Source: Yuukianura sp. NJ FZ-2021 (taxonomy: Eukaryota). Taken from it: 64,000 bases of DNA. Within the stretch, counting starts at the first letter, position 1. Every line of letters starts with the position of its first letter. Shown here piece after piece: positions 18,866-61,312 of this stretch. The stretch spans positions 9,796,001-9,860,000 of the forward strand of contig CM102287.1 of assembly GCA_046563655.1 (NCBI GenBank), read 5' to 3'. The notes under the pieces are model-generated. The model was not told the origin of the DNA. It saw nothing but the letters and a program-made list of their open reading frames with translations, and made no database searches. A program made the translations under genes and the position numbers.

Positions 18866-21207
18866 ATGCGGGGTCAAACGAGGTCAGCCGCTCAGGTCAC
18901 CGTGTTTCTAATTTTTTGTATTGGTTTTACCCTAGGGTTCTTCAGTCCCATGTACTTTGGCTTCGACAAAGAAGGTAAAAGTGAGTCTGTTCCCAAAATT
19001 CCTGAAAGTCACTACACTTCCAGCACTGGCTTTCTCTACTCCAAGGCACCTCTGCATCTAATGCACCTTGCCAAATTCGATGCTTTCATGTTTTCCAAAT
19101 TCAAATTATACCAAACCAAGTTGAAAAGGAGGATGAAGAGACTCAAAACGTACAAAACTCAAAAAAATACACAAATCAAAGCCCAAGAAAAGTTGAATTT
19201 CAAGTTTTTTTTAAAATCTATTTTTCAAATTTTTGTTCAAATTTAGCTACATTGCCGATTTTGAGCGGAATTTGGTCAATTCTGAACGAAAAGAGGTCAA
19301 TGACCCCGAAAATTGGCAATGGGCGTTCCAAGCAAGCTCGAATCCAGCCAGAGCCTATCCGCTTCTGGCACGCATGACGTCTAACCTCCCGAAACTCTTG
19401 CAGGACATCGAAAGTGGCCTAGAGACAGGTATGATTTTATATGCAGAGGTCATTGACCTTTGACCTTTGACCTCTATTTTTGAAAATACAGATTTGATGG
19501 AAGAGATCTACCAGAAGAAAGAGCAGAATCGCCTTGACTGGCCTTCTGAGCATGACCCGGAGGTCACTCGACAAGCTTTGATTGAGCTGCCTATAGTTTA
19601 TGACATTCCGGTGACCTCGATCTGTAATGGTTCGTTTTTGGGTGACACTCCAGCACTCAAAGCAGATCATTGCAACCAAATTGCATCTACAGCCTACAAC
19701 ACAAACAAATTGGCTTCCGGTGTGCAGTGGCTCGACGCAGCTCGCAAGAGAAAAAAAGTCGAAAAACCCAAAACCGTCCCCGACGAAATTCTGAACATGA
19801 ATTACGCAACCCTATGTGCAGAGGTAAAAACAATTGAAAAAGAATTTTTTGAAAAAATTACAAAAAAAAAATCAACTGTTTCTTTAAAAAAAAAAGAACC
19901 ATCATGAATGGAAACTGTAGCAATGCAGCCAGACAACCAATCTAGATGTCGCAATTGATTTTAAAATTTCCTTGTTTTTCAAATTTTAGCATGACTTTGA
20001 ACTCGCAAACGTGACTGCCACGAAAGTGTCGGAATCGCGACCTTTGACCTCACTTTGGGAGGATGACCTTTACCCTCACAACGTTTCCTTCGGAATAGAC
20101 GATGTCGAAAGTCCACGTCTGCGCCATCTCCACATTTCACAAACTCCACAAGACCAAATCCATCCGACTGTCCGATTCTGGCAACTCTGCGCCGGCGCCA
20201 ACTTCCAAAGTTCAAAAGAACTGTCTCAAGGTCACTGTTTCCATAGCAAGGTCACTGACCCCCTGACCTCCCTCCTCCCCCTCAAGGTCGAAGTGCTCAA
20301 TCGCTTCCCCCCTGTACTCCAAATTCATGATTTCGTGGACTCATCTACCAGCTTGGCACTTATCACTCAAGCCATGACTGCAATTGAAGCTCAGAATGGT
20401 CCTGGTCAAGGTCAGAAGGCAAAAGGGGAGGAGCTTACTGCCAGTCCACCAATCCCAGCCACGCTTACAACTGATGGAATCCACGCATTGGCTAGATTTG
20501 GACCAATCACGAACCTCTGGAAGGAGTTGACGCGAGTTCCGACAGCTAAAGTGACCGAACGCCTCCATGTCAACGCATACTCTTTTGCCAACTTTGACTC
20601 AAGTTTGGACAACGTAAGAAAGTTGACCTTTGACCTTAACAAAAATTAATTTCAAAAGTAATTAAAAATTATTGTTTTTTTTCTAGTTCCCGGATTCCGA
20701 TTTCACTGAATCCCAAGTCCAACAGACTTTGAACATCCACATTTTCGTAATATTTTTTAAAATTGGTTCAAAATTTTGAAATTCAACTAGTGTTAATTAA
20801 TTTTTATTAATGTAATTCCAGTTGAATAGCATTGGGGGTGGTGGAAGGACGGTTTTCCCTAAACTTGGATTTGGAGTTGACCCCACCAGAAATTCGGCTC
20901 TGATTTGGTCACAGTTCAAGATGAACGGAGTAGGTCATCCCAATTTGTACTGGATCAACTGCCCAGTAATCGCTGGAAACAAATGGGGTAATTACAATTA
21001 CTTTAATTACAACTAATTACAACTAATTACAATGAATTACAAGTAATTTAAAGTAATTAGATCAACCCAGAGCTAATTCTCAACTTGCTTTTCCCTATTT
21101 GAACTTACGTTGTAAACTTTTAATTTTTTTGCCAGTGGCGTCCAACTACATTCGACAGGAAAGCAAAGAATTTGGATCCTCCGGGGGCAACATCTTGGCC
21201 AAATTGA
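18866..21207 (+). CDS. Prolyl 4-hydroxylase alpha-like protein, predicted catalytically inactive
   Basis: Exons 18866-19149, 19247-19428, 19492-19823, 19990-20613, 20687-20746, 20822-20987, 21136-21207. N-terminal hydrophobic segment, SNPARAYPLLARM, KVEVLNRFPPVLQIHDF, GGRTVFP, CPVIAGNKWVA. Confidence 0.82.
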
Positions 21208-21992
21208 AATAAAACACTAATTACAAAAACAAGTTTGATTAATTAACAAAAAGTTAAATGCTAAATTATTACTTAAAAAAACACGGAACTTTACAATACA
21301 AAAATGGACAAAACTAAAGTGTTAGGATTCAACAACATAAAAACACTAAAAATCTTATTTCACAGCGGCATCAGATTTGTTTCTCGTGAACTTTTGCAAA
21401 ATAAATTTTGAGATGTTAAGTCCTGTCTAATCCGTCATCATTCTTTTAATTAACTACTAATCTTAACTTTAAACTTTAAATAAAAATTTTAAACTAAATT
21501 AGGAAAGTGAGGTGTAATAACCTGTTTATGCAGGAGACTTTTTAGAATAAATGAACTGAAATGATTTGGGAAGACAATGGTTGTGATGAAGATGTGAATT
21601 ATTTGGACAATCAGTCACTCACTCCAATAAAACTTTGTGTTTATGCCATTCCATGCTTTAACACCTCTAAAATAATCATTCAACTTAACTTCACCATTAT
21701 CTTCCTAACATTCCAGTTTTGCAGTTTTCGCACTACAAGTAGAAAATTGCAACAAAAAGCGATACAGATTAAAATTCAACTCAAGTGTCTAAAAAAAAAG
21801 TGTGTTTAAAGTTAAACTTTTAACTGTAATTAACTTTTCAGTATCCTTGTTGCATATCTGGAGAACTAAATTTCAAAACAGAAGTTTAAATGTGAATTTG
21901 CACTCGACTTTTTCAAAAGTGAATTTGAATTTGTCGAAGGTTTTGGAAAGTGAATTTGAGTTTGTCGTAATTTTTGAAAAGTTGCTCCGAAA

Positions 21993-24415
21993 ATGACCTG
22001 GACTAGTCGTTTTTGTGTCTTCGCTTTGTTAACCGCTGCAATTTTTCGGGGTCAAGGTCAGGGTGACTCGGATGCGAAAGAAACTAAAAGCGAACCAATT
22101 TTTAGCAACTTTTCGCTGTCTCCGTTTCCTTTGCAAAAATTAGTGGAATGCGAAGTGGGGATTTACGAGGCTATGAAGGTCATCGGAAGTCAATTGCGAG
22201 AGGAAGAAGCGTTGAGCCAACTTGTGTCCATGTAAGTCTTAGCAGAGGTCAAATGTCATGTTTTGCCAATTCAGAGGTCAAAGGTCACGTATTGTTAACG
22301 CAAAGGTCAAAGGTCAAAGTCTTTTAGGTACTTGGACGACTATGAAACAAGTTCCGGGAGTCTGCCAAACGACGGATTTTTAAAAGAAGACGCTGTTGAG
22401 AAAATAGTGAACAATCCACTGGCAGCATTTCGGATGCTGTTTCGCTTCGTCCGTGACCTTCCCAAGGTCATCGCAGGAGGTCACGGAATGCTGGACGAAG
22501 TGTTGTCGCCGTCGTGTGCAGTGCCCAACGAACAGGACTTAGAAGAAGCCATGGACGGCATTCTGCGATTAGCTTTCACGTATGACCTTGACCTTCTCGA
22601 GGTAATTTGACCTTGACCATAGAATTTGACCTTTGACCTGAGCTTGACCTTTGAAATTTTAGTTTTCAGAGGGTTATATCCATGGCATCATGACCCCATT
22701 TACACTGGAAGCTCGTCACGCCTTTGCCATTGGTCGTCGTGCTCTGGACCTCGGCACTTATCCAGCTCTGACCGTCGAATGGCTGGAATTGGCCAAGTAC
22801 TTGACCTCAGAGGTCAATGACTCCGGTGACCTCGGGGTGAACGACCCCGAGGTCAATGACCCCGATGAATTCTGTGAAAATGACATGGAGGAACCAGAGG
22901 TCAATGACCCCGTTTACCTCCGTGATAATGACATGAATGAACTGGACGCCCTGCTTCTCCAAGCTGTTGACACCGTGAGCTCCAACTTTTTTCTGTTCAA
23001 TTCACAATTAAAAAATTTCAAAAATTTGAAATCAAAAATTTGGGATTTTCAATTTCAGCATGATAAACTGTTCGACTCAACCACAAGTTACGCCAACACC
23101 TTTTTTGTGCGGAAGATCGTTCCGAAACCGGAGATTCCTTATGAATTTGACGGTTGGTATCGTCGGATATCCCAGCGGTCACGGGATGCTGAACGGTACG
23201 GTGGGAATCCAGGTCGTAACTACCACGAAATCAATACTTGGACACTTTGTTCTGGACAAAGTGACGAAGGTCACCAGAGGTCACCACCTTTGTATTGTTG
23301 GAACGACCTGCGCATTCCGATTTTCCCGTTTCGGATTGAGCAGTTGACTGAAGTTCCCCTGGTGATCCAAATCCATAACTTCCTGAGTCCAGTTGAAACT
23401 GACCAGTTAGTAGAAATAGCTCAACAGCACATGGAACCTTCGGTTGTATCGTCCGAAGAGGGACCAGGTCAAACTTTCCGGACAACCGAACGGACGAGCT
23501 ACACGAAGTGGCTAATCGGCTGTCCACTCTGCTTAAAAATTGAAAACTTGATTCAAACGTTCACTGACCTCCACGCTCAACATGAAACTGGACTGCAAAT
23601 TGCTTCTTACACTCCGTTCGGTGCCCATTATCGATTCCATCTTGACCAGGTACATGTCAGGTCAAAAGGTCAATCGAAAACCACATGGCTTTCGAGACAA
23701 AGAAAGTACAAAAAAAATATTGAACCGATTGGGATCCGAACCCACATTCGTTCAGACCGGGAAGAGCTCTAACCATTGAGCTATCACGTTCCAATCATAC
23801 TGGAACTGCTACCAAACGGCAAAAAATGTAGATAAACTAATTCCAGCTTTTCATTCTATTTTCAGGATGTAACGCCGCTTTTGGAGCATTCGGACGACAT
23901 GAGAATTGCTACGTTCATGATCTACGTAAAATCACTGAAACGAAAAATCAAAATTCCAAAATATGAGACTTTTTTTAAGAAATTTTTTTTTTGAAAAAGT
24001 TCTGTTCTAAAACAATTTCAACAGTTGTCGGACGTAGAGGGAGGAGGATCCACTGTTTTCCTGGACGCTCAGTTGGCCGTCCGACCGAGCAAGGGTAGTG
24101 CTGTTTTCTGGTATAATTTGGATCCATACGGAGACGTTGACTTTAACACGCACCACGCAGCATGTCCAGTTTTCCTAGGAACTAAATGGGGTAAGGACAA
24201 TTTTTGAAAAAAAAAGTTTCAAAAATTTCTGAAAATTGATTTTTCAAAAATTCTTCTCAACTTTTCAGTTGCAAATAAGGTACGTTCGAAAAAATTACAA
24301 ATTTTTAAGTTTTTTGAAAACGTAGTTGAACAGTTTTTTGCTTGCCTTTTAGTGGATTTGGAGTGACGACCAATTTGATAGAAGGAGATGCCCTCCCAAG
24401 CTTACCAAAAACTAG
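21993..24415 (+). CDS. Prolyl 4-hydroxylase alpha subunit (catalytic residues intact)
   Basis: Exons 21993-22231, 22328-22601, 22663-22974, 23059-23649, 23866-23925, 24025-24190, 24269-24279, 24353-24415. Signal peptide, NNPLAAFRMLFRF, HYRFHLD (HxD), RIATFMIYLSDVEGGGSTVF, HAACPVFLGTKWVANKWI. Confidence 0.92.
23721..23791 (-). pseudogene. tRNA-derived pseudogene or SINE head in a P4H intron
   Basis: Minus strand GAACGTGA-TA-GCTCAATGGTTAGAGC (A box, perfect D arm)...TGGG-TTCGGAT-CCCA (B box, T arm)-ATCGGTTCA then a T run; anticodon arm does not pair. Confidence 0.7.
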
Positions 24416-24713
24416 AAATTTTGAAAAATTTGTAAACTAAAAAAAAATTTCGAAAAAGTACATGAACAAAAAATATTTTATTCATTTCCTGTTCGTACCA
24501 TCATCAGGTTTGACTTAAGAAATGCATAATGCTGCTACGAAATTTTTTTAAGTTCCACCGTCTTTTTTAATTCGAGCGCGTCAAATTTTGATAATCTACT
24601 CAGAAAATTTTGATTTTTGGGTAAAACTCACATAGTTTCGTCATCTCGTTTGTCTAGTTACTGATTAGCATTAAGGGCTCCCTTAAAGGGCTTTACAAGG
24701 TCAAAGGTCACGG

Positions 24714-27600
<2,887 letters not shown>

Positions 27601-28388: not shown

Positions 28389-29354
28389 TCAGTAGTAGCC
28401 GTACGTCGGACGATGCAGTTCCTTCAACATTGGAGTGTATTTTCTTCCTACGAAGTGCGGCTCGGTTGGACGCGGAGTTTGGTATACTAAAATATTTAAG
28501 TTAATTAAAACTAAAACTAAATTATGAAGGTCAATGTCACTGTGAGGTCAATTTGCTTTACCTGTCCATGGAGGACGACGATACGGAGGAAGCCTGGTAG
28601 TGGAGGTCACGTAGTCCGGCAGTGGCCAGGAATATTTTTTGGAAAAGTAGCGACATGCGACTCGGGTCGGATATTTTCGACATATTTTCGTCATATCGAA
28701 GAAATCAGAGTAATCGTATTGTCTTTGAGCAGTAACTGGAGACTGAAAACTGGAAAAAACTGCTGGCCTGGAAGGAATTTGTCTCTTCTTGGTCACAGAT
28801 TCCTGCGTCGAAGTGTCAACTCCTTCAAGACGTAGCTTATCATCTGCATTCCGGAGATGTTCGTGTATTACCGGATCCAAAACGAATTTGCGACGATTAG
28901 GCTGCTCGGGCTCCATCTTGGAAGAAATCGTCGTCGTCGACGTTTGACCGTCGACATTGACAGCCTCCTCTTCTTTTTTCATGTCAACATCAGCTGTAAG
29001 CAAATTAGTCTCTAGTGGTTGGACAGTGGTTGTAGTAGTTGTCTCAATTGACCTGAAATCTAAAAGTTGACCTTGACCTTTGGCACTTTCTGGTTCCAGT
29101 TTCGGTGGCAATGACGGTTCATCTGATTTCTGGATCTTCAAATTCCGAATTGGGTCAAACGGATACTCGGGGTGTATGAAAATCGGAATTCCAATGGGAA
29201 CTACCTTCTCGTTCTCACCGGACAGCTGATGTTGTTGACCTTTGGGCTGACCTTGGATCCAAGTACCCCCTACATGTGAAACTGGAACTGCAGTAAGTAG
29301 AAAGAAGCAAATAACTACTAAAAGTACTGCAACTGACGAAAACTGATTAACCAT
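28389..29354 (-). CDS. Orphan secreted protein, possible prohormone-like precursor
   Basis: Exons 29354-28562 and 28486-28389 (phase 1); signal peptide MVNQFSSVAVLLVVICFFLLTAVPVSHVGG; RRK, KKR and GRK sites; one Cys pair CRKYPTRVAC in the mature region. Confidence 0.7.
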
Positions 29355-30232: not shown

Positions 30233-30767
30233 TTCTCAAAGTTTTGCTGTGAATGACCTCTGTTGACCTTTGTGCAGAATGACCTCTGTTGACCTTTGCG
30301 TTCAATGACCTTTGAACTGTGTGCCAATTTTTGCTGCCGACTATTTGTCATTTCAAGTTTTCGCTCTCTTATAAACTAGGTTAAAGTTAATTAACTAAAA
30401 AATTAAACCATAACCGGGAAAACTTCAAAGAAAACTCTACTGACTACTAAAGTGTAACTGTTACTCGATTAGTTAATTAATTAGAAAAATTAAGGAAAAG
30501 TAATTAAGTTAGTTTCAACTTACACCGGAAGTTCGCCCACCACATATCAATTTTATTGTAAAAATCAAAAGAATAAAAATGTATCAACTAATTAATTGTA
30601 GGTATAATTTTTAATTTTTTCACAACACCGTAATTTCCCAATTAGAAAGGAGGAGACACAAGATAACATTTTTTTTGAAGTTGTGAGATAAATTTTGCAA
30701 ATTAGTGAAAAATTAGTACTCGGATGATACTTTTCGGTTTTAGATTTTTGAGTTTGAGCTGAATTTT

Positions 30768-32550
<1,783 letters not shown>

Positions 32551-32710
32551 CTTCAGTTGATGTCCAAGGGTATAAAACAAGCGATGATTAATCGATTAAT
32601 GAATTAAGCAAAGGAATGAGGAATCAGCGAGAGTTTCAAGCGTAGAGACAAAGACCTCCTTCAACGAAAGTACAGCCGAACACTGCAAGGGAGAGCAATG
32701 GCGGCACCCC

Positions 32711-36714: not shown

Positions 36715-36773
36715 ACAGCTGTTTCTTCTAAACCCGAAAAAGTACAAATTGTTCAAAATCCTTAATCGCTATT

Positions 36774-42845: not shown

Positions 42846-43632
42846 TTATGGGTCAATTCCCGTAACTGCCGGGCTAACTCCGTTTTCATTCCTGTCGCGT
42901 AACTCCGCCTCTTCTTGCAATTGACCTTGACCTTGACCTCCTGACCCCTCCCCTGGCTTGCTACACCTCACCCCCACAAAGGGAATGTAAATGCAGTCAT
43001 ATGGGATGGCCGACAGAGGAAGAGTGGATTGACCCAGCACAAGGTCATTGCCCTCCGCAGTTGACCCGGCAACAATTGCAGTCGGTTGCCAATACGTTCT
43101 TTTCCCGCCAAATCTCGTTCCGGGGTAAAATCTCCGCTCACCAGCCGACCTTGCTTGGATTGTCCGCAGTCCGCTTGTCCTCTGCATCACTCGGCTCGAC
43201 ATTTCTAAGGGGTAAAAAAAATCATTATCGTCAACCCCTTATCGTGAAATCTTTATCGTTAACCCTTTATCGTGAAATCTTTATCGTTTGTGAAATCTTT
43301 ATCGTGAATTCTTTATCGTTAACCCTTTATCGTTAACCCTTTATCCTGAAGTCTTTATCGTTTGTGAATTCTTTATCGTTAACCCTTTATCATGAAACCT
43401 TTATCGTTAACCCTTTATCATAAAGTCTTTATCGTTTGTGAAATCTTCATCGTTAACCCTTTATCCTGAAAATCTTTATCTTTAAGCCTCGACCTTTGAC
43501 CTCACCTCCTGAGTCTCTCTTGCCATAGCGTGGTCCAGTATAGACTCCACTGACGACGGAGACCATCACACAGCAAATGAGACCCAACAGCAGGAACGTC
43601 ATGGGGATCGACAGACTCGCAGTGGACGTCAT
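42846..43632 (-). CDS. RYa: RYamide (luqin-family) neuropeptide precursor
   Basis: Exons 43632-43506 and 43204-42846; signal peptide followed directly by VYTGPRY-GKR, second peptide RR-FYPGTRF-GGKR, C-terminal Cys pair DCIYIPFVGVRC typical of RYamide/luqin precursors. Confidence 0.88.
43225..43480. repeat. Minisatellite of 14-18 nt units (TTTATCGTTAACCC / TTTATCGTGAAATC) filling the RYamide intron
   Basis: Directly visible, roughly 17 units sharing the TTTATC core. Confidence 0.95.
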
Positions 43633-46857: not shown

Positions 46858-49800
46858 CTAAAAAAGAAATGGATCCACTTCAACTGGTTTGTACTGCGGA
46901 AGGTGATTGGGTATTTTCCAGTTGCCACCACACGGACAGCTCTTGAGCCACCGATTGTCCCAGGCCTTGTTGGCTGGTGACCTCGGCGGAACTTGCATCA
47001 GCGTAGCACATCCGCATCTAAAAACACGAAAAATTATCAAAATTGGTCAATATTTCATGAAATTATCAAAATTGCTCAAAATTTCATAAAATTTCTAAAA
47101 TTAGTAACAATTGACGCGCGTCACGAACTAAAAACACAAAGCTCCACTTTCACTCTATACTCCATCTGCCTCAAGTCAAACTCAAATTAAACAAATACAA
47201 ACGGAAATGAATGAGGCTCAAATCTCGCTCTTAACCTAACCAAAGTTCTAAAAACCTTAACCTAACTTCTGGGAATCACAAAACCTGAAACTACCTTTGT
47301 CTTTGGTGGGTGTTGACTTTTCATTAAGCATTTAAAACACAAACTTGGAACAAGGAACCACTTAATTAAAATATCCAAAAATTTAATTAAAATTTCCCAC
47401 TCCTCTCTAGCATTTCCCGCTTCAACTTAACATTTCCAACATCACCCTAACATTTCCCGCTTCAAATTAAAATTTCCCACTTCAACATAACATTTCCCAC
47501 TTTACACTAACATTTCCCGGTTCAAATTTCACTTAATACCTGTTGCATGCTTTGACTCCGACGGGATTCTTGCCTAGCCAAAGCAAACGGAGCCCATCCA
47601 TCCAGTACCCGCCTGACCTCTGACCCTCCAAATTGTCCAGCCATTTGCTCGGATTCACTCCAAACTCAAACTGAAACCATAAAAATATATTATAAACAAT
47701 TAATAACAATAATACAAATAATAATAAGACCACAAGTGAATAAAAAGTAGTTAATTTCATTTGAATGATGATTTGTTCAAAAAACGCACTCAGTAGTATG
47801 CCATTGACAAAAAGATTGTAACTTTCACAGGACTTTTTTGAAAATTCAAAGTTTGATGAGAGGTTTGAAATTTTTAAGTGGGAGGACTTTTTTGAAACTA
47901 AAACTTTGAAAAAGAGTGTTTTTGGTTTTTAGTACCTGAAGTGGTGTGTTTCTGGTGAAAGTTGCAGTGAGAGCCACTCCAGTGTTTTTGCTTGGATAAA
48001 ACGGATTCACATTTGGCATCTGAACTTCACTTGGCAAAAGACAACAGTCATCTAAATTACACAAAAACACAAAATAGTTTAGTACCCAGTTTCTGTTTTT
48101 AAACAAAAAAGTAAATTTCATTTTAATTAAAATTTTAATTCTTGAAATGTTAGTTTTTCATTTCTGTTGCCCCGAGTCAAGCCAAAGCAAGGCTGAATGA
48201 ACGAACGAGTATTCTCTCACACTTTAAAAACAAGAAATGAATTCCACGTCTACAACTTTCCAAAATTTTAAAACAATTTTTCAATTCACTTTTCAAAAAT
48301 AAGTTTATTTGTCTACCAATTTTGAATCTTGTACCAACCAACACTAATTCTAGTCCTAGGAAAGCGTGAGTTCCTGAATTTTCACTTTTAGGTGAAAAAG
48401 AGGAAAGTGTGTGTAAAATTAGTGTCCTCATAATTAAAAACAGGTTAAGCCATAATCATAAAACGTAAAACCTAAAAGTCATTTGGAAGTTCATGCTAAG
48501 AAAGTTCCGAGCAGGGTCAAAGGTCACACCGGAACGCTCGAAATGTCAACAACTCCAAAATTAGTCCAAAATTAGTTTTTACAACGCCAGAGGCAAAATG
48601 AGACAAAGAACTCCATACATTACAAGGTAACTACAACAGTACAACCTACGTTGTTCAAATATTCTAAAGAAAACTTAAAAAACATGAACAAGTTTCAAAA
48701 TTTTGAAAACTGAAAAGTACAAAATTTTGTCTCTCTCCATTCATTTATGTCAGTTTACACTTTTACAGAAATTTAAAAAACCGTCAACTCAATCTTCTAT
48801 CTTGGCAGCTTGGATTTCCAGGTTTCTGGAACTTCTTTCCAGAACATCAGTTGGAAAAATTTCAAAAACTGAAAACTTTTTAAAAATTATGAAATTTCAA
48901 CATTTCATAAAACCAAAATTCAAAAAACGTTAATCATCTTCAGACTCTTCTTGTGCTGTAAACCCGTCGGTCGTCGTCGGTGCCGCCGCTTCTTCGAGAC
49001 TATTTTCTCTGCTCAGCTCCGTCGTCAGATGCAAGTAGCTTTTAAACTCCTGTTTGTTGTCCACTGTTTTCTGGAGCGGTGTTTTCTCCTCCGGTTCCAT
49101 TGCATAATACACATCAAGTGACTCGTGTCTTCCTGGGACATAGACCATCGAGTCACCCTTGGCCAGAGATGGACGATGTCCAGGGTGACCATGTCCAGGG
49201 TGTCCAGAATGTCCATGTCCAGGATGTCCAGCTCGTCGGTTTCCTGCCAGCGTCTCCATCAGCGCCGCACTTTGCATCATCATCTGAGCAGTTTGTGGTG
49301 GTTGCGGTGTCTGTTGCGTGTAGCATCCAAAGGTCAAGCCACGCCCTGCCTGCGGGTACCTCGGATAGTCAACTCCATTATAGCCGAGGTCACTCTTCGG
49401 CTGAATCGGGGACACGACGACGCTTCTTCCGTCGTAAAACGACTCCTGTTCGGCTGTTTCCGGAAACCCGGAATTCGGAAATCCTTGATGAGCTTGTGCA
49501 TCTTGTTCCTTCTGCTTAGCCTTTCTGTTGTTCCACCAAAAGCCGATCACGAGCAGCAGAAAAACGATTCCAGCGAATCCCAGCGAAGCATACAAAAAAG
49601 TGTATGCTGTCGGATCCTTCTGGATCACAATATGGTCTTTTTCAGGCGTGGACGCTCTGTGGTAACTGTGATCTGCAGAAACAGAAAAGAAACATGAAAA
49701 GAAAAAGTCAACTTTTTCAAAAAAACTTTGTACATTTTCAATTTTTTGTTAACTTACGTGTCTCCGTATTTCCCATGATGGTTCCTTCCTCTTGCTCTGT

Positions 49801-52800
49801 TTAACTTTTAGCTTGTTCTTGACCTAACGATGATCAATGTTCTGCTTCTCTTTTGTAAATGGATCCTTGGAGGCAGATTTTAAAAGTTGACTTTTACAAA
49901 AACCAAAGTTGGCACAGACTAATCTAATTCCACTGACTCATGGTACAAAATTAGTCATTCCTTATTCACAGCCCTTAAGGGGTCTACGCAGGGACAAAAC
50001 CTTTGACTTTTTCAAAAGAAAAACTAAAAAAAAAAAGTTAAAATTTTCAAAATTTCAGCTTCTGCTTGAGCAAAGCTGTTCAGAAGTGGACTTCATCAAG
50101 GAAATTCTTGATTTAAACCACACTGGGAGGAAATGTCGTCTTGTGGTTATGATTGGGTTCTTGCCAAATTCAGATCCACATAGAACTGAAACTTGAGTGT
50201 CTAAAAAGTTAGAACATAAAAGTCTAATGTTTAGACTCCTAGAAAACACAAAGCTAAAATCTAGCTATAACTTATGCTCAACTAAAAACCAGCAGAGCCC
50301 TACTAACTCATCCCACACTTTTTATAACTTACAAGACAATGGTCATAACAAAAGCATTTTTAGTGTCACCGACTCAGCAATTCTGTTCACTCTTCCATCT
50401 CATACCAAGAAAAAAAAATGTATCACCACACAATTCTTAATCATCACATTACAATAAAGTCATTAGCTCAGCAATCCTACATTCTAGAAGCGCCACAATT
50501 TAAAAAAAGTAAAGGCGTGACCTTTGACCTGCCCTTCAAATGTGTTTGAAGCGTCTAATTTGACTCAAATTCCCCAGAAAGTACAAAATACCCCATATTT
50601 TCGGTCAATTTTCAATTTTTTTTTTGTAAAAATCCTACCGAAATTAAATAAAAACTAAAAACTTGCATTTTTTTAACATAAACCTGCTTTTCTCATCTCT
50701 CTATTGTCTGATTTGTCTGAAATTGACGAAGTTGGAGTTGAAAATGTTTTTTTTTCGTAAAATTTTTATGAAATTTTGAAAAATCCACTGAATTCGTTCG
50801 CGAACTACACGATACAACTGCAAAAATTGCATTCTTTTTTAAAACTTGGAAAATTGGATTTCTGTTTAAACGGCTTCGAAGCTATTCACTTCGAAAATTA
50901 ATTTCGAAAAACTAAAACTAACATTCCAAAATTAGAGCAACTTGCGTTATTCTTCGGAAAAACTTGTATTCACATTTAAAAAGTTCAATTAAGGAGTTGA
51001 ATAACTTGAATTAACTCACCAATTAAACTCTCATCAGGGTCATGCGGTGCAACGGAAAGTTTTGTAAGTAGTCGAAAGAGTAGTGGCAGCACATCTAGAT
51101 TTTCTGTTGTTTTTCTAAACGAAGGGAGACATGCTGGCCGAATCAATCCCCAAATTCTCATTAGAACTATTAATTCTCTCAGCGTTCCAACAGCCTTCGA
51201 GTCTCTGCAAACCTCCCACTGCAAAAACAATAAACACTTAAACTCAAAATAATTAAAATTTCAATCTCAAACTAAAATTTCAATCTCAAATTTTACATTG
51301 TTTCCAAATTAATTGTTTTTCCTAAAAACTTTTCCAGGCTCCTCCCACGCAGTCACATCGCAACTTTTTCTTAGAAAAATCAATACTTTCAATTTCTGAA
51401 TCCATTAAAAATAGAGCCGTAAAAAAGTAATCAGGAAAAAGCGTTCCTTGAGTCAACATTGTTTCTCTAAAAGTGGACACGGTGGGTATCATAAAATGTA
51501 CACCGCGGCGGTGCTGCTTTTGTGGTGGATCCACCGCCGCGGTCACAAAACATGTTAAAATGGACACCGTGTTTTTAGCATTAATTGAACACGAGCCCCA
51601 ATTTCGCATGAAACCAAGTCATCATCGCCCACAACGCAATCACTTCGGCCATAAAATGTGGCAAATGAAACTATAAACACGGTGTTCAATCACGCCTTCA
51701 CAGAGTTAATAGTCCATAACTCTAAGCTAACTTAATTAATTATATTATATTAAAATATATTAACATGAAAATTTTAGTTAAAAAATTATGACACTTACGC
51801 CAGGAGCTCTGGAGTGTCTTAGATCGGGTAAAATTGCGAGTAGTTTGACCGAGAGATCGGCACACCATTGCAGAAATTGCTGCAGCGATTGCAGCAATGT
51901 TGGTTCTACAGCATACTCCTTCGCTTCCATATTTAGCAGCACTTTGTCAACATCGTGCAGCGCTTCACCTTTACTGCCAAGTAGATCTAAAATTTTCAAA
52001 AAAAAAATCAAAATTTTGAAAAACCAATTTTCAAAAACAACCCTGAACAATGTGAAGTGGATTTAAGTTATCGAAACCTAAAAATTCATGAAAAATTGAA
52101 AACAAAAGATGTTCATTTTTTGTTTTAAACGGTATTTTCGTTCAAAATTTTGAAAAACTAATTACTTGAAAGTGCTTCTGCTGGACCACGGTCATGGCTG
52201 GACAGATTTCTAGGCCTCAACAGCGCTTTGAGTGCGCCTGAAACGAGATGCAGAGTCAACAGAGTTTGCTGGTCATTCGTCCGTGTCACTCCGCCAGAAC
52301 CCAACCTGTGACCAAAAACTAATTAAACTCTTGACCAATCAAATTCAAGCTTCTTCTCAGCCAATCAGATTCTGAGAATCAGCGATTATGCCAAGCGATT
52401 TATTACCTGTGAAGGGCCGCTTTGATGACGAGCATCCTCGTGGCAAAGTGACCTTGAACTGGTTGTGGTTGTCTTGCAAAAGTTTCGCTGAGTCGATCGC
52501 TGATACTTTCAATCAGCGATGGCCTCAGACACATCATGATGTCCCACGGATCCAGACCTCCCATCATACTCAATTCTATGAATGCTGTAGCAGTTGCTGC
52601 AAAAATTTCAAAAATTACCATTTGTAACCAACTTTTTAGCAAAATTTTGAAATTTTGAAAACATTTCTTACTTGCGTCAATACTGGGATGGATTTTGTAC
52701 AAATGGAGTTGTGACTTGGAGTCCATGGTGAGTAGAAGTGACCCACTCCATGTAAATTCCATGGCCACAAAGGGCCAACTTTGTGCTGCCGAACTTTGAC

Positions 52801-55800
52801 CTTGACCTTGACCTTGGAGTCTCATTTGCTTTGCTTCTGGAATGTCATCTGGGTCACGCTTGATTTGCACGAGAGGATCCACCGCTGGAGTGCTTCCTGT
52901 CAGCAGCCCAACCTGAAATTTCAAAAAAATTGTGTTTAGAACAAGAATTGCCAAGTTACGAAATTTGGACATTGGAAATACCCGAAATACGACAATTCAT
53001 GGTCTAAATTTGCAAAATTTTTGCAATATTTTGCAAAAATTCCAATCACGTAACTTTCAAACCTGACCCACATTGGTTCCAGGAAAGTCACAGGAGTCAT
53101 AGCCTTCCAGACACACTAGAGTGTCCAGAACATGCACAAAATTTGGCAATCCGAACGAAATTTGACAAGAAACAAGAATGACAACAAATTGTTCAAAAGT
53201 GGAACAACGAATTAATTACTCATTAGGAATTTCACAGTTTCAAATGTAACCGGGTCACTGCTGACCATTTAAAAATCAGCGCCACGAAGCCTAATTAACT
53301 CATTCGCTTTTTAGTTAATTAACTTTAACTACAATTAACAAAAAATTGAACGAAAAAAAATGGCAAGAATTCCGATTGGTTCTGCCGGCTCTCCAGTAAG
53401 CTCAACAGTTTAAACTTTGACCAATTTTTAAAAGTGTTTTCAATTTTTTGAAGTTCAAAATTTTGAAATTTTTTGTTCTAAAACTTTTTTACACTTAGGT
53501 CATGCCTTCTATGAACATGAATTCGTTTTTGACCAAAGAGACGATTGCCCAAGGGCTGCTGGACGTCGCCCTATTGGCCAGTAATGTCGCTCAACTCAAG
53601 TATGTCATGTCACTTGGCCCAACTGGTCCAAATGCACATCCATACTACTATCCCATGGTAGTTCTCATTTGGCTCTCAATTGCTTTACAGGTAAAGGTCA
53701 AAGGTCATATTTTCAAAAAAAAAGTTTCGAAAAACCAAAATTTTGATTTAGGGGTCAGTCGGACTCTGCCTGATTCTGATGGGAAAGAATCAAGTGCAGG
53801 ACGGGGGGCCTGGAACTAAAGCGGAAGTTTTGAACAACGTAATCACAGCGCAAGTATTTCTCATCACCGTGATCAACGTTCTCATTTCGTCGTTTAACAT
53901 TGAAGACACAATTCAGCGTTCGGGAAAGTTCGACGACTGGATTCGTGACGGGAACAACACGAAGTACGTTGAGAATTGCCCATGTGTCGATCCACTACGA
54001 ACTTTCCATCAGTCGGTGTCTCAAAATTACAAAGTCCATTGCCATTAAAATTCAAAATTTTAACTGTTTTTTTTTTCTAAAATAAATTTTCTGAGCTAAA
54101 CATCCACTATGATCTAGTGAAATCCGAACAATGAGGGGTCGAATTTTGAAAAAATTGCGCCTGGCGTCATAAAATTACAAAGTACATAACTTTGTTTCAA
54201 ATTTTAAAAACTTACTTGTTGAAAGTTGTCTGTGCGAATAAAGTGAAGGTTTCCGTTAGCCAATGAAATTGCAACAAGCGGTTGAATTGTGTTTGAGATT
54301 TGTTGGGTCATTGTTGGTGACGACTGGAGCGACGCTGGAGCCGAAGCGGAAGAGTTGGACAGCGACGGAGTAATTGGAATTCCGAGGGAACAGAATTGTT
54401 CAATCGGTGACTGAAACGAAATAGACTGCGTCTGCTGCCAAGACTGAAAGTCAAAAATCAAAATTTTAAAAAAATTATCAATCTAAAATTCAAATTCAAA
54501 GTTGTTTGTGTACCCAACACTGTGGAGGTTCGGTTCCGGACGCTTGGAATCTGGATTTCAAGGGCGCTGGAAGCGACAGTAGTTCGTACAAGTACAAGTG
54601 ACTGGAGAATGGATTCTCATTATTTTTCAGCGCTACGAGAATACTGTTGGTTTTAATTTTGGACAAAAACTTGATGCTGGAAATTGAGTAATCTGGAAAT
54701 TCAAAATTCAAAGTTACAAATTCAAAAACAAAATCAGTTTACCTAGAGGTAAAATTAACTGCAAATGTGATACCGTACCGGGCATGTTTGGAAGAAAGAG
54801 TGAGTGGCCTGCAAGTACTTTGATTTCAGCTTTGTCACGACTTGACCCCACAAGTGAAACGTTGACACGACTGACTTTAATAGGGTGATTGACCTTGCCT
54901 GAACTACAAGCTACCAAGATTTCACCTCCTAGAATCACAATTAAGTAATTGATTAAGTTTTTAATTAATTAACATTAAGTATAATTGAAATACCTTCGCC
55001 ATAGGCCATGTCTGCCAGTAGAATCTGACTTCTCAGGGGGATAATTTTTTCTGATGCGGTGATTGCCGTGAGTGGATCGTCGGGTGATCGTATAACAGTT
55101 CCTAGTAAACCTGTTCCTGTGACCAAGATACTGCCTTGTAAAGAACTTGTGAATCCTCTTCCTCGACGAATAGCTCTGACTTCATACTTTTCAGTATACA
55201 AAATGCTGTCCAACTTGTCTGGAATTAGACTCACCTACAAAACATTTTATCACAAACTATTCAGTAATGATCGAAGTCCTGAAGCAATTTACTTGTCTTG
55301 GAGCAGTTAGCCAACAAGATGTGAGAATCGGTTCTCCCCGGAACTCTCCTGAGTAAAGGACACACCACTTGTTAAGTAACTCTTCAACCATTCCAAATAC
55401 TTCGACGTGCCCATCTTCTGAACCAATCAAAATTTGTACTCCGGATGGATCCCAGTGCAAATGAGTAATTGCACATTCACTCCGTTTTACCCTGAAAACG
55501 ACATTCAAAGTATAAAGGATAAAGCACTTCAGAAATCAACATTTAGCTGGTTAATTTTTCGGATTAGCAGAAGAATTTACAAGTGACAGTTCCATGGCGT
55601 ATTCAAATCGGCAACGAATACATATGACCCTGTCCAGGTCATTCCATCCACACTTTGCTTCTGTTTTATCTTCGATTTGGACGATGTATTCTTCGTACTT
55701 AAATCAGTACAGGAAGAGAACGCTAGTAGATTCCGAACAGATATGGAGCATATCGGTTTGCATCCATCGTTCAAGTGTCTGAAAAATTTTACGAAACCAA

Positions 55801-55914
55801 AAATATAAAACGTCATATACCGGTTCTTAATTGGACCAAAAAATTTGACCTTTGACCTTACCTATTCAACTCCGACGATAAGCCAGGTTGTTTTACTTGA
55901 TAGAACAGTTCCAT
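46858..55914 (-). CDS. MED16: Mediator subunit 16
   Basis: Many phase-consistent exons from MELFYQVK (55914) through VFVADLNTPW, ITHLHWDPSG, LDPWDIMMCL, LQSLQQFLQWCADL, LRELIVLMRIWGL, DDCCLLPS, to KACNRCGC...WDNRWLKSCPCGGNW (46858). Large introns 54215-52913 and 51019-48052 carry nested genes. Confidence 0.92.
47391..47530. repeat. 20-nt period tandem repeat, 7 copies (CATTTCCCRCTTCAAMTTAA-like) in last MED16 intron
   Basis: ATTTCC recurs every 20 nt from 47392 to 47512. Confidence 0.9.
48930..49776 (-). CDS. Orphan single-pass membrane protein nested on the same strand in a MED16 intron
   Basis: Exons 49776-49758 and 49672-48930; MGNTETHHSYH..., TM FLYASLGFAGIVFLLLVIGFWW, basic stop-transfer RKAKQK, Tyr-rich tail, GHPGHGH repeats; in-frame TAA upstream of the ATG. 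Confidence 0.78.
51477..51688. repeat. GC-rich nested inverted repeat, possible MITE or transposon-end remnant
   Basis: ACCGCGGCGGTG (51502-51513) pairs perfectly with 51532-51543; ACACGGTG (51477) pairs with CACCGTGT (51565); 51561-51574 pairs 13/14 with 51675-51688. Confidence 0.6.
53360..54048 (+). CDS. Ninjurin family protein, antisense inside a MED16 intron
   Basis: Exons 53360-53395, 53499-53690, 53752-54048; TKETIAQGLLDVALLASNVAQLKYV, LIWLSIALQ, LNNVITAQVFLITVINVLISSF are ninjurin hallmarks. Confidence 0.92.
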
Positions 55915-56719
55915 TGCTAAATTTTTCTAAAATTTCCAAAAACTAAAACGTGAAATTCTCAAAATTTTTATCTTCTAAAAAAATAAAAACAAACTTCGAA
56001 GTTTCACTAAAAGTGTTTTTTGTGCCGACCGGTTGCCTATCCTTTGTGCATGGGCAACTCTAATGAAATACTTTTGTAATTAGCAGAAATGAACTAATTT
56101 AGTTAAAAATCCACAACTAAAGTTAAATATTGTGCTTTAACTATAAAGGTTCTTCATTACGATGACATAATTAGGAGTTGTACACTTTAGTTAATTGATA
56201 ATCCTTCAATAAATTAAACTAAAGTTAGGAAAATAATAAAATAGTAAAATTGAATGCCCATCTCTGGGATAGTGTACGGAAGTAAAGGGGGTAACTTTTA
56301 GACAAACTCATTTTTTAAATTGTTGCAAAATTGTGCAAATTCTGCGACCAAAAAAGGAAGTGGATTTGTAAATTGCAAATAAATTATCCCCTCTGCTCTC
56401 TCTCTTCTTCATTAATTTCTCTTGACAGAACAAACAGACACACAAGGAAAGGTGTTGTCTATCTCTGATACTCCAAGTACTAACACTGTATCCTCTTCTC
56501 TTGGAAGCGATAAGTTGACTCATCGGTAGGAACATACCGTCATTTGGTGTTTGGGTGTGGAGACTAGGTAAGTTATTCACTTTCAACAGGTCAACTGTTC
56601 ATTCATACGAAAAAGTCAATAAAAGCGGTTTCCGATTTACAGGTGAGAACAAACAGTGGCCGTTGATTTGTAATTGGAGTTCATCCGGTGGACGACTAGT
56701 ATCAAAGAGGCAGTAAGAA

Positions 56720-57397
56720 ATGATGGTAAGTCTCGAAAATTCAAATATTTTTTGTTACAATCGTTTTGTCTTGGTCTCAATTTACAGTTTATGCATGTTG
56801 TAATGTTTGATTTTGTGTAGGGTTCATACAATGAAGAGGAGTTCCAGGAAACGTTTCAGCTGTTTGACAACAAGGGGGATGGCAAGATCCAAGTGAGCCA
56901 AGTCGGTGATGTTCTACGGGCAATGGGTCAAAATCCGACAGAGGCTGATGTCAAGAAGTTGATTTCGAACCATCGGCAAGGTATGAACTTCAGTACTTCA
57001 TGTAACCACTGCAACAAAACGTTTCACAATCGCTTTTTTGTTATTTCAGATGAGAGGATCAGTTTCGAAGTATTTCTGCCAATGTATTCGTCCATTTCAA
57101 AGAACAAGAGTTCAGACACTGCTGAGGACTTCATCGAAGGTTTGAGACACTTTGACAAGGAAGGGAACGGGTACATTTCATCGGCCGAATTGAGACATTT
57201 GCTTACCACTTTGGGTAATAATTAATCACGGATTAGTTTTGCCAAAAAGTGGATTACTTGATATATTACGCTGAGCGTTTCTTGATTTAGGTGAGAAGTT
57301 GACGGACGAGGAAGTGGAGCAACTGGTGACTGGACACGAAGATTCACAAGGGAATGTCAACTATGAAGAATTCGTTCGTGCAGTTATGAACGGTTGA
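56720..57397 (+). CDS. Mlc-c: Non-muscle myosin essential light chain
   Basis: Exons 56720-56725, 56821-56980, 57050-57214, 57291-57397; [60 protein letters not shown]. Confidence 0.95.
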
Positions 57398-57725
57398 TTC
57401 ATAAGACGAACCAATATCGGCCAAATACCGTTTAGTTTGTTACTAACAGTTCCACTTTTTAGCAGTAATGAATCGCAGAGGCCAATCAGTACTTTTTAAG
57501 AACTTAAAGTAACTTCCATTCCAAACCCACATTTGATCCACCTTTGCCTAAAAACGTTTTGTTTTGTCTATTTTTTGGACAAGTGACTAACTACTGACTA
57601 ACTCCGCCCTTAATAGAAACCAAGTATAATTTATTAGTTACTCCCGAAGTAATCCGAAGTTAATAAAACTAAAAATCTTGTTACTTCCGGAGACAAACTG
57701 TCGATTGTCAGTAATCTTTCAACAC

Positions 57726-59983
57726 TCAACTTGTTGAACGTATCGTATCTTCAATCCAATCCATATGTGAGGTCACTCTGTCCAAATTTTTCAAAATTTC
57801 AAATTCAAAATCTAATTTCCAATTTATAGAAAATCTACCTCGTATAAACTCCTGGGAAATTCGGTTCTGCACATTTGAATCCATAAGAAACAATTCCAAT
57901 TTGAACATATTGTTCAGAAGTTAGGGGCTGCATAAGTGGTCCTGCCAAGTTTTTTAAAAATTTTGAGAATTTAGAAATTTTGAAACTTTTTGAAAAAATG
58001 AAACTGAGAAATGGAAGTAAGTTGCAATACCACCGCTATCTCCTTGGCACGCATCCCTTCCCCCACGTTGAAGCCCTGCAAAAATTTTGCAAATTGGATT
58101 TTTGCAATTTGCGAATTCCATTCAGCTTTCATTTTGTTAACGGTAATCGCTGCCTTACCAGCGCAAATATGTCTGTCATTGATTTTGGCATTTTTGAAAT
58201 CAGCGTACTTCGCTTGACATTCAGCGTCAGGCACAATTGGCAACTGAGTTTCACGCAAAACAGCACTGCTTGGACCATCTAAGTGTGCAAATGTGCAAAT
58301 TTTTGCTAATTTTTTGCAAATGTGCAAAATCTAGAAATTGGCGAATTCAAAATGACTTACTGAATCCAATGGCTCCCCACCCAGCAACAAATGGACTGTT
58401 GTTTTCAAAACGACTTGAACGCAGTTCCACTGATGCTGGGAGGCAAATGGGATGAACTTGGGCTAAACATCAAAATTCGAAAATTTGAAAACTGGGTTTC
58501 AAAATTTTGAAAAAAAAAAGTTCAGATTGTATTTACGTGTAAATTCTACTGGGTTCCGTAGTAGAATAATCGCAATGTCGTTTTCTTGTGTTTTGCTGTT
58601 GTAGCTGGGAGAAATTCGTGTTTGCTCGATTTGCAAATTAAGCGGATTCAGTCCATCTCCGTCCGAAAACAAATCGTGGTCACCCAGTCGAATTGTTTTT
58701 CTAAAAAACACACTTTTTTTGAAAACTTTTCAAAACATACTACTTTTTAGAAAAACTTTTCAAAGAACACTTTTTAGAAAAAGTGATCTAAAAAGTATTG
58801 TTTAACTTACAAGTCGTTTCGGTTAAATGTGCAATGAGCCGCTGTTAGAATATGCCTGTAAAAAAAATAGTTGTTAGTTGCAAAATTTATGTTAATTTTT
58901 CATTTTTTTTTGTAGATTTCTGAAATTTTGAAAAGTTTGACTTCAAAATTTAGTTTTACGAAACCTTTTGCCAACTAATGCTCCACCACATAAGTAGTTT
59001 GTGTTTCCTGTATTAGCGTCAGTGTAGCCCAGTGCCGCCAGCCATGGCCACGCCCCTAATCCAAATTTACAAAAACATAAAATTTTTGCAAAAAAATGAA
59101 ATTTGCACTCTTTTTGCAAATTTTTGCAATTGTTTACCAATTTGTGCTTCCCGTCCACCGACAATCCTGGAGTGTGACGCATTGCTGAATCCACATCCCG
59201 TTCGAATGTCAATGTTTTCTCCATTCGGAACTGCAATTGCCCGCGGTCTCTGCGTCGTCGTTGTCGTCGCCGCGGTCCGCACCGTGGGCCGTGTCGTGAA
59301 CCGTGCCGTTGGTCGTGTCGTGACCCAATCAAACGGTCTCCTTGTCGACGTCTGCGCAGGTCCTACGCTAATAATGTTTCCTCTAGCTTCAGGGCAACAA
59401 ATGAGCGACGTAAATCCTGAAACTCCGCAGAAGCTTCTACGCAGAATCCGATTGACGCTGATTTGTGGACGATTGGCCAAAAATCGCTGCAAAATGTCGC
59501 AACTGTCCAGTGGCATGCAGAATCCATTTGTATCTCGAAAAGTTTGGCAATCTGAAACTGGTTCTTCGTAGTCAGAAGGCGGAGCTTCTGTTGTGGGCGG
59601 AGTCACAGCGCCAATTGCCGGATTGACGAAATTTTGCACAAAAGATTGCAGGCCTGAGGCAAAGGCTTCGATCGGATTTCGTGCAATTCCGGTCAAACCG
59701 AAACTTTCAAGCGGACGGGGACGCTGAAACGGAAATCCAAACTGTGGACGACGTGGATCCACGTCGGGCGCAGACGCAGAAGGCCTTGGTGTGTCGTCGT
59801 CATCAAAAATTATATCTAAATTTTAGTTTTCAAATTTCAAAAAAAAAACTGGCAATTTTTTGAAAATCTTACTCTAGAATTGATACATTTCATTTTCAGA
59901 ATTTGCTGACCTTGTCCATGAAGCAGAATTGGCAAAATTGCAAAAATTAAGAAGAGTTGTGGCACAATTTGCAAAAATTTCAT
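57726..59983 (-). CDS. CLIP-domain trypsin-like serine protease (proclotting-enzyme-like)
   Basis: Signal peptide, CLIP cysteines CQT...GFCMPLDSC...FCG...LICCP, Thr/Arg-rich linker, R/IVGG activation site, triad [23 protein letters not shown]. Confidence 0.95.
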
Positions 59984-60709
59984 TTCAGACCAATCACAAA
60001 GGGAGATTTTTTTTTTCAAAATTAATTTATATGCTTCCTGTTGATGTTTGGTTGTTTTTTCTTGTTTTTGCAAACTTTTGCTGCTCGAAATAACTTTTGC
60101 TTCTCAAAATTCGCAAGTTGCGAATTTGTTGTTCTTAAAACAAAGACTACTGCGGAATGTTTGCCAATTTCTAATGAGATGGCGTGGGACTTGGAAGATT
60201 ACAGATTCTCACACGCCAAGTTCATTTTTAATCAAACAAAGAGGGAAATTGGCCCCCAGCATAAATTCGCAAATTGACTCAAGGTCACTCTTTTAATGTG
60301 CAAATTTTTTGTGCTCAAGCGGACACTTAATTGACTTTCTAGAAAAACTTGAGTCACTTTGGCTTTCAATTTGTATAAAAAATGGAGTTGATGCAATTGC
60401 GATTAATTGGAATCACACCAATTGGATGCTGCATGAGTGACGTCTGGTCAGAAACTTGTCCAGTGTTTTTTGCCAATGTAATGATGACATGGAACAAACG
60501 GAATTCCCCGGAGTTTCGCCAAATTGCAAAAAAAATTGGCAGAAACTAAAAAAACTCAAGGTGGTTCCAAGAGTGGAGTAAAAAATGAAACAATTTATTT
60601 CTTCATGATCAATTTAGGTACTTGGTTGTAAAAATTAAGAATTAAAATTTCCAATTTTCAAAAAAAAATGGATTTTCAAAATTTTAGAAACTGAATGTCA
60701 GAGGTCATC

Positions 60710-61312
60710 TCACTTTCCAACTGGTAGCAGGTCACAGTCGCACGCCTAATACAAAAAGTAACATAAAATTAGTAATTGTGAGGGAAAACCTTCAGTTTAG
60801 TGAAGTCAAAAATTTGAAGTCAAGATTTGTTGGAATTTTTTTTTTGAAATTTTGAAAAAATTTGGATTTTTTTTTTGAAATTTTGAAAAGTTTACCAATC
60901 CTCCGTCACCCGTTTGACACAAATAGTAGCAGATGTAGTCCCAGTCTGGTTGAGGTGTCGTTGCAACAGCAGGAGTCGGTAGTCCGTCTGTCCAAGCTAT
61001 GTCGCCTGACCCTGACATGTCATCGTGACCTTGACCTTGACCTTGACCTTGACTGTGACCGTGACCGTGACCTTTGTGTTGTTCATGCCACAGTTCGTGT
61101 TCTATCGGATCATAACCCGGCTTCATTCGGTGTTTCTTAGGCGGAGGAACTCCGTTTCCACCATGCTGACCTTCCATTTGACCTTTCTTCGGAATACTTC
61201 CGGAAATGCCCGAACCGATTCCATCGTACCGATTCGTGTTCGCTGGAACAGCGATGGCCAGAATCAGCACAACTGATGCTGGAATGACTAAGTATTTTAC
61301 TGGTCCAAGCAT
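60710..61312 (-). CDS. His/Gly-rich secreted protein with C-terminal four-Cys module
   Basis: Exons 61312-60896 and 60745-60710; signal peptide; HKGHGHGHSQGQGQGQGH; DWDYICYYLCQTGDGGL/ACDCDLLPVGK stop. Confidence 0.78.

Follow-up and report, generated by a model that had tools for sequence, protein, structure and literature searches.

The word AGGTCA in exons and introns of a springtail genomic window: a DNA word in excess of what the encoded proteins require

Direct repeats (DR) of the hexamer AGGTCA spaced by one, zero or four bases (DR1, DR0 and DR4) are sites of nuclear receptors, and hexanucleotide microsatellites located in coding sequence yield, as in-frame period-6 arrays, dipeptide repeats. 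Exonic transcription-factor sites, reportedly termed "duons" by Stergachis et al. in 2013, are said to bias codon choice, with weak statistical effects over many motifs. The inverted repeat (IR) of AGGTCA with a one-base spacer (IR1) is referred to as the "idealised" high-affinity EcR/USP element and is described as surpassing natural hsp27 in its binding to the EcR/USP DNA-binding domains (PMC1885670), whereas the bacterial DNA uptake sequences of Haemophilus and Neisseria are reported to double the frequency of their own peptides (Findlay and Redfield 2009, PMC2817400). The present analysis deals with AGGTCA in a stretch of 64,000 nucleotides (the window) of contig CM102287.1 of the springtail Yuukianura sp. 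NJ FZ-2021, in which a preliminary description had noticed the word inside coding exons and had proposed that the DNA word, rather than the peptide, drives the formation of tracts such as GQGQ, EVND and DLDL. A literature search found no paper joining AGGTCA with Collembola or TGACCT with springtail, and the combination of AGGTCA with Daphnia yielded only ordinary response-element papers.

AGGTCA and its complement TGACCT, counted on both strands of the 64-kb window (the scope of all window counts given here), occur 192 times, as compared to 28.4 occurrences expected from dinucleotide-preserving shuffles of the window (n=100; sd 5.65; maximum 49; none reaching 192). This 6.8-fold excess places AGGTCA first in the hexamer enrichment ranking, followed by the overlapping GGTCAA and GGTCAC, and the 11-mer GGTCAAGGTCA is found 15 times where 0.04 are expected. 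When the copies are allotted to the 22 gene models predicted in the window, 77 fall in exons (22,671 bases, 3.4 per kb), 50 in introns (8,124 bases, 6.15 per kb), 60 elsewhere (33,205 bases, 1.8 per kb) and five across a border, the background density estimated from the shuffles being ~0.44 per kb. The intronic copies display no strand bias with respect to transcription (22 sense, 28 antisense), which indicates that AGGTCA is a feature of double-stranded DNA and not of RNA; the same absence of bias speaks against a role of the word in splicing at the level of RNA. The exonic copies (50 sense, 27 antisense) are likewise regarded as unbiased, one antisense frame being forbidden by TGA.

With the exception of GGGTCA (n=46, 2.15-fold), no one-mismatch variant of AGGTCA is enriched in the window, the others ranging from 0.2- to 1.6-fold as against 6.35-fold for the core word. 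A depletion of near-cognate words was considered but not retained: AGGTCA itself inflates the Markov expectation, and the counts of AGGTCC and AGGTCT match those of other contexts. In a census of half-site pairs based on a five-base core, the prevailing geometries are DR1 (20 pairs), DR0 (15), IR1 (13) and DR4 (8), while DR2, DR3 and DR5 number two each and IR0, IR2, IR3 and the everted repeats (ER) ER0, ER1 and ER2 number zero; the IR1 spacer is A or T in 12 of the 13 cases. The window words thus possess both the RGGTCA half-site core and the pairing of two half-sites at a fixed dimer spacing by which response elements are recognized.

The word exceeds the needs of the proteins and of their codon usage, and does so on either strand and in each frame that is free of stops. 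When synonymous codons are permuted within each gene, leaving proteins and codon usage unchanged, 23.1±4.1 coding copies are expected whereas 78 are present, a number reached in none of 1000 permutations; when codon order is permuted the expectation falls to 11.2±3.4. Among 2080 hexamers AGGTCA is the top outlier of the synonymous permutation (z 13.4); GGTCAA (10.3) and GGTCAC (8.7) rank next. All five stop-free frames are occupied (sense xGQ/xGH 30, antisense xDL 16, sense [EKQ]Vx 13, antisense [LVM]Tx 11 and sense RS 7), the frame that reads TGA holding none. As to the codon pairs of the 22 gene models, Gly-Gln is written GGT-CAA in 25 of 39 cases vs 7.4 expected (18 of 30 vs 5.7, P=8e-7, once each tandem tract is collapsed), Gly-His is written GGT-CAC in 15 of 29 vs 3.8 (12 of 25 vs 3.2 after collapsing) and GGT-CAT in one of 29 vs 4.4, and Asp-Leu is written GAC-CTT in nine of 45 vs 3.9 (eight of 44 vs 3.8), while the figures for Glu-Val as GAG-GTC (eight of 38 vs 3.6) and Arg-Ser as AGG-TCA (seven of 30 vs 0.7) are unchanged by the collapse. 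Tandem arrays do not account for the excess, since collapsing them removes nine of the 77 exonic copies by hand count. In the 22 window proteins the most over-represented dipeptides are GH (2.34-fold) and GQ (1.79-fold).

The dependence of the word on protein constraint emerges from a comparison of all peptide positions that could spell AGGTCA by some synonymous codon choice. In eight conserved genes (CDK, YME1L, tubulin, Vps16, ninjurin, light chain, CLIP protease and F-box) five of 70 such compatible positions spell the word (7%), as against 73 of 130 (56%) in the 14 other, weakly conserved genes (Fisher P=1e-12), the proportion reaching 17/23 in a prolyl-4-hydroxylase (P4H), 6/6 in a secreted orphan and 8/8 in a His-rich protein. 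The five copies of the conserved genes correspond to the level of codon usage (5.7±2.2 expected), whereas introns of these genes carry the word (four copies in tubulin, seven in Vps16); it is therefore protein constraint that keeps the word out of those exons. Furthermore, compatible but unrealised positions are similarly dense in the two sets (57 in 3,867 residues of the 14 genes, 65 in 3,696 residues of the eight), so that the excess does not stem from the re-coding of older peptides; rather, the peptides exist because of the word. Within exons the word keeps to genes and linkers under weak constraint, and the peptides GQ/GH, EVND, DL, LT/VT and RS largely originate from it. These data support the proposal that the DNA word drives the tracts; the anticipated preference for GGT-CAA, GAG-GTC and GAC-CTT and the use of differing reading frames are likewise borne out in the 22 gene models, and the proteome-wide signature that had been envisaged is seen on the scale of this window, where GH and GQ lead the dipeptides.

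The arrangement of the paired copies depends on whether they are coding. The 12 exact DR0 pairs (period 6) are distributed as nine in exons, two in introns and one elsewhere, whereas the 18 exact DR1 pairs (period 7) are distributed as none, 13 and five, respectively; the exon shares differ with a Fisher P=1.5e-5, and they remain significantly different if each array is given a single count (5/8 vs 0/15 exonic, hand calculation). DR1 is the main paired form of non-coding DNA, while in-frame head-to-tail arrays of two to four exact units are found at 22583, 29068, 42922, 52797 and 61026. Among the tandem duplications bearing the word that were located with Tandem Repeats Finder (TRF), those of non-coding DNA have periods of 19 (100% identical), 26 and 29, and the one in an exon has a period of 48, i.e., 16 codons. 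Such a pattern of frames and periods would follow from a growth of clusters through short duplications or insertions, with only the in-frame products surviving in exons.

Several of the features collected in Table 1 belong to two tandem P4H alpha genes, P4H-like (18866-21212) and P4H (21993-24366). The paralogues are 25% identical and only two motif-coded columns, out of 30 and 49, are common to both, indicating that the positions of the word turn over. Because P4H has a single PGQ at the paralogous position 23466, the GQGQ of P4H-like at 20404 looks like the product of a 6-base unit gain. The 15-mer GAGGTCAATGACCCC is present in five exact copies in the window, three of them exonic in one same frame and two non-coding. 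Homologues of P4H were obtained by a full HMMER search (62 matches), a word-indexed protein search with the P4H frame having given none, and ten of the 62 were aligned: nine proteins of nearly full length together with P0022, which is the closest fragment. The EVND insert of P4H is missing in all ten, which have ~32–37 residues fewer between LAKYLTS and ELDALLL, P0022 reading LAKALTTNDAGIDLDAMIL at this position. Each EVND(S/P) word of the insert is a near-palindrome GAGGTCAATGAC(C/T)CC, and the units of its 48-base duplication (2.2 copies with 78% matches by TRF) are identical at 38 of 49 positions. On the other hand, the DLDL at 22583, which immediately precedes a GT donor, aligns gap-free, with no insertion, to a Y-[DN]-x-[DN]-L that is semi-conserved among the homologues, and the residues under three copies at 22454-22483 can also be aligned with no indel. 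As a separate matter, the upstream P4H-like copy retains just one of three iron ligands (SSLD replaces FHLD, and LYWINCPV replaces THHAACPV, as compared to P4H) and, judging from these residues, looks like a catalytically dead paralogue.

The closest match of MED16, that of Folsomia candida (49% identity, a value in keeping with another springtail), aligns from FTWSGS on and has a Ser-rich stretch in place of QGQGQGQ. In the case of the RYamide precursor, the relatives P0064 (66% identical) and P0065 (47%) have in common with it the PYDCVYIPFVGVRC core and the C-terminal NENG..PAVTGIDP, but their linker is wholly different and is without the GQ tract. Six-frame translation agrees with the peptides initially attributed to the word, i.e., GQGQ at 20404(+), 22050(+), 29068(-), 42922(-), 52797(-, as LQGQGQGQSS) and 61026(-), EVND at 19293, 22810, 22849 and 22897, and DLDL at 22583. 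As to whether the tracts are insertions in loops, the three that could be compared with homologues, namely the GQ tracts of MED16 and RYamide and the EVND of P4H, lie in variable linkers and are missing from the homologues, and DLDL is no insertion; the GQ and EVND tracts were found neither to use codons at background frequency nor to be conserved in homologues. In two predicted His-rich proteins (48930-49776 and 60710-61312) Gly-His is nearly always written GGTCAC, a sister word with the same GGTCA core. The intron of the RYamide precursor (43219-43489) is nearly filled by ~19 copies of the 14-base TTATCGTCAACCCT, with higher-order periods of 28 and 74 bases; the complement of this unit contains GATAA, read as a candidate GATA-type site.

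Table 1. Arrays, pairs and tracts of the AGGTCA word in the window (positions are those of the window; a dot in the strand column stands for no strand given)
Position	Strand	Feature	Context
888..923	.	Cluster of four copies within 36 bases, one perfect IR1 AGGTCAATGACCT among them	Within leucine-rich-repeat unit NDLAERSLTFLDL; outside the range of the preliminary description
19293..19307	+	GAGGTCAATGACCCC, reads EVNDP	P4H-like exon; near-palindromic IR1 (AGGTCA-A-TGACCC)
20404..20414	+	GGTCAAGGTCA, reads GQGQ	P4H-like exon
20624..20636	-	DR1 pair	Intronic, 10 bases past donor of P4H-like exon ending 20613
22050..22060	+	GGTCAAGGTCA, reads GQGQ	P4H exon 1, directly after predicted signal peptide
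22242..22316	+	2.6 copies of a 29-base unit that holds a DR1 pair	Fills P4H intron
22583..22650	-	TGACCT array over exon-intron border	Exonic pair (22583-22594) reads DLDL; next intron has four perfect copies and one TGACCA
22802..22944	+	Insert of ~37 residues in P4H	Three EVND(S/P) IR1-type words and two TGACCT; 48-base in-frame tandem duplication
23659..23672	+	DR2 pair	Intronic, 10 bases past donor of P4H exon ending 23649
29068..29079	-	AGGTCAAGGTCA, reads GQGQ	Predicted secreted orphan; gene from own models only
30252..30311	-	26-base unit x2.3 with five TGACCT	~110-180 bases upstream of predicted start codon
35168..35205	-	19-base unit, two perfect copies, each with a DR1 pair	Vps16 intron; local tandem duplication building clusters
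42922..42939	-	Three tandem AGGTCA, read GGQGQGQ	RYamide precursor, hypervariable linker
52797..52814	-	Three tandem AGGTCA, read QGQGQGQ	MED16, variable linker ahead of conserved FTWSGS block
61026..61085	-	Ten-unit hexamer array (GGTCAC/GGTCAA), reads GHGHGHSQGQGQGQGH	Predicted secreted His-rich protein

Taken together, these data are best accounted for, with a probability of about 0.7 for the primacy of the DNA word as such, if the AGGTCA words of the exons locally represent a genome-covering DNA-level system consisting of single words, DR0, DR1 and DR4 pairs and IR1 palindromes. The word would enter coding sequence mainly by short tandem duplications or insertions, in addition to substitutions that change amino acids, and selection would purge the products that break the frame or a constrained residue; such a filter would be the reason why exons retain period-6 arrays, the 15-base palindrome and the 48-base duplication, and introns the period-7 arrays and the 19-, 26- and 29-base units. 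The majority of the exonic copies would then be tolerated by-products and not required sites. As to the origin of the abundance, the word may be kept or multiplied because a dimeric DNA-binding protein of the nuclear-receptor type recognises it, as is suggested by its strict geometry and by the absence of decayed copies; judged from the sequence, such a protein-binding cause has somewhat less than an even chance of being correct. More speculative, and on balance unlikely, is a form of sequence-specific molecular drive in an animal, proposed by analogy, in which a nuclear-receptor-type protein, or repair or duplication coupled to its binding, would bias the genome toward its own word. Were this the case, the word would accumulate wherever selection permits, exons included, and the composition of the proteome would be reshaped as a by-product, a eukaryotic counterpart of the uptake sequences.

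Several considerations weigh against the picture of a DNA-level system with tolerated exonic by-products. The evidence comes from one 64-kb window and from self-built, sequence-predicted gene models of which at least one, that of YME1L, is mis-spliced, and the missing decayed copies could simply reflect the young age of the copies. In the YME1L loci of six distant relatives, the best six of 78 loci recovered from metagenomes with the YME1L exon, AGGTCA amounts to a pooled 17 vs 8.7 expected, ranks ~115 among the hexamers seen and forms no paired sites, a result that is weak either way; the exons of these relatives have 66-79% nucleotide identity, too distant for an alignment of introns. Furthermore, since DLDL and the copies at 22454-22483 occupy residues that can be aligned with no indel, insertion is not the sole route of entry and selection may be acting on the exonic DNA. 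This leads to the premise of dual coding, namely that the exonic copies are working binding sites (exonic enhancers or "duons") selected as DNA, with the protein adapting around them. Consistent with this premise are the recurrence of the exact 15-mer GAGGTCAATGACCCC in five copies, three of them exonic in the same frame, the better preservation of the palindrome (15/16) than of the remainder (23/33) within the 48-base duplication, the double use in DLDL of the minor codon CTT on pre-existing residues by an array that runs on into the intron, and the lack of enrichment of one-mismatch variants. However, DR1, the commonest non-coding pair, is exonic in 0/18 cases although four of the six frames could encode it by our own frame count, and in conserved exons the synonymous positions hold no surplus of the word (5 vs 5.7) whereas the adjoining introns carry sites; dual coding is rather improbable.

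Returning to the origin of the tracts, they could also be viewed as ordinary low-complexity coding repeats (GQ, GH and acidic EVND) generated by hexanucleotide slippage, through which identical codons are copied, with GGT and CAA as the preferred codons. The head-to-tail, period-6 layout of the exonic arrays, the ten-unit array of the His-rich gene, whose units differ by point changes (GGTCAC/GGTCAA), and the status of CAA as the major Gln codon are in keeping with this explanation, but exonic copies are mostly single, in five frames and on both strands, the GGT-CAA bias persists at 18/30 with tandem tracts collapsed, the same word is the top hexamer of non-coding DNA, where it takes DR1 and IR1 forms that slippage of coding hexamers could not produce, and 56% of the compatible positions are realised as against 7% in conserved genes. 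A peptide-first origin is thus already disfavoured and has a very low probability. A transposon, a miniature inverted-repeat transposable element (MITE) or a satellite family inserted widely, into exons as well, could carry the words, in the way primate Alu elements are reported to have spread a consensus DR2 built from the same half-site (PMC1785376); yet an all-against-all comparison of 108 word-masked clusters together with 80-base flanks returned 34 pairs, of which 32 are overlapping neighbours and two are short AT-rich matches, so that the flanks are unrelated and no transposon or satellite carries the words, which makes this explanation exceedingly improbable. As little credit can be given to an annotation artefact, whereby "exonic" copies would be intronic or non-coding: four copies were indeed reassigned from exon to intron upon inspection, the orphan genes are without homologues and the models are predictions, but 56 of the 78 coding copies belong to genes having Pfam or homologue support and the tracts cited lie in open frames between blocks that can be aligned to homologues. 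TGACCT has been described as a candidate telomere motif in a beetle (PMC12134996); telomere-like insertion seems unlikely for the window, its arrays comprising just two to four units, in both orientations, and forming palindromes.

The genes of the window were modelled with our own small Viterbi program (three-periodic Markov model, self-trained splice sites), whose output was curated to the 22 models. Pfam matches on open frames identified leucine-rich repeats, an F-box, a CDK-type kinase, the two tandem P4H alpha genes, a YME1L/FtsH protease, beta-tubulin, Vps16, phospholipase A2, MED16, ninjurin, an EF-hand light chain and a CLIP-domain protease. Some neighbouring genes were merged or mis-spliced in the runs, and the Walker A segment is left out of the YME1L model. 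For the orphan genes, the exons are those predicted by this gene finder only; the predicted orphan proteins have no homologues, look-ups of the two in the ESM Atlas giving no usable match. Two arrays (20624/20631 and 23659/23667) initially modelled as exonic were corrected to intronic, just past splice donors. The modelled introns are short, mostly 55-100 bases, with donors of the GTAAGT type, and 46 of the 50 intronic words lie within the first three quarters of the intron. Paired words in introns often begin 3-17 bases past the donor, in either orientation (20614-20640, 23650-23675, 35165-35205 and 53691-53710), and in our models AGGTCA can itself form splice junctions, as AG/GTCA at a donor of the CLIP-protease gene (59907-59912) and across an acceptor of beta-tubulin (31444-31449). 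The ninjurin gene (53502-54048, +) seems to be nested on the opposite strand in the MED16 (51778-55914, -) intron that separates the N-terminal part from the middle one. Another word family (CTGGAA/TTCCAG, ACTGGA and CTGGAC) shows a coding excess under synonymous permutation with z up to 6.4 and is 3.1-3.6-fold enriched in the whole window, and a non-coding 20-base unit, TTAACATTTCCCACTTCAAC, is repeated 6.6 times at 47387-47518 with higher-order periods of 40 and 60 bases.

If the situation found in the window were to hold genome-wide, this springtail would represent a natural experiment on a DNA-level signal that competes with protein coding, the signal making new peptide segments (the GQ/GH tracts, the 37-residue prolyl hydroxylase insert) and skewing dipeptides while being filtered by frame and by protein constraint. 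The question would then be why textbook-perfect hormone-receptor sites occur at several per kilobase in one animal lineage, and which protein reads them. From the practical point of view, low-complexity GQ, GH and EVND segments in this genome would have to be annotated as footprints of the word and not as conserved protein features.

What known system does the AGGTCA word resemble most? As in the case of duons, a DNA motif within coding sequence goes along with codon choice, but here a single exact word also alters amino acids and adds residues. Hexanucleotide microsatellites differ in that most of the window copies are non-tandem and the unit is the very word that, at other spacings, prevails in non-coding DNA. 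The retinoic-acid response elements of the DR2 type driven by Alu in primates represent likewise, as described in PMC1785376, a lineage-specific multiplication of perfect half-site repeats and would be, by analogy, the closest precedent for the multiplication of such elements in one lineage; unlike these transposon-carried sites, the window words have unrelated flanks and occur also in exons. Response elements share with the window words the identical hexamer, mainly the DR0, DR1, DR4 and IR1 spacings and GGGTCA as the sole enriched variant, but ~3 copies per kb across gene bodies and exons, known here from the sequence, are far above what gene-specific regulation entails, and natural elements are usually degenerate (hsp27pal is called "highly degenerated" in PMC1885670) whereas the window copies are perfect. 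The uptake sequences, on the account given in PMC2817400, are also short exact words vastly over-represented genome-wide, coding DNA included, that raise the frequency of their peptides, prefer poorly conserved genes and positions and use frames according to codon preference; in the window, too, the word is in excess in both coding and non-coding DNA, favours poorly conserved genes and positions and inflates its own peptides. The uptake sequences, however, are bacterial and have a known cause, biased DNA uptake followed by recombination, while here the genome is that of an animal and the word is found in dimer-like arrangements. By analogy, then, the uptake sequence is the closest relative of the AGGTCA word as far as behaviour is concerned, and the nuclear-receptor response element the closest as far as sequence is concerned.

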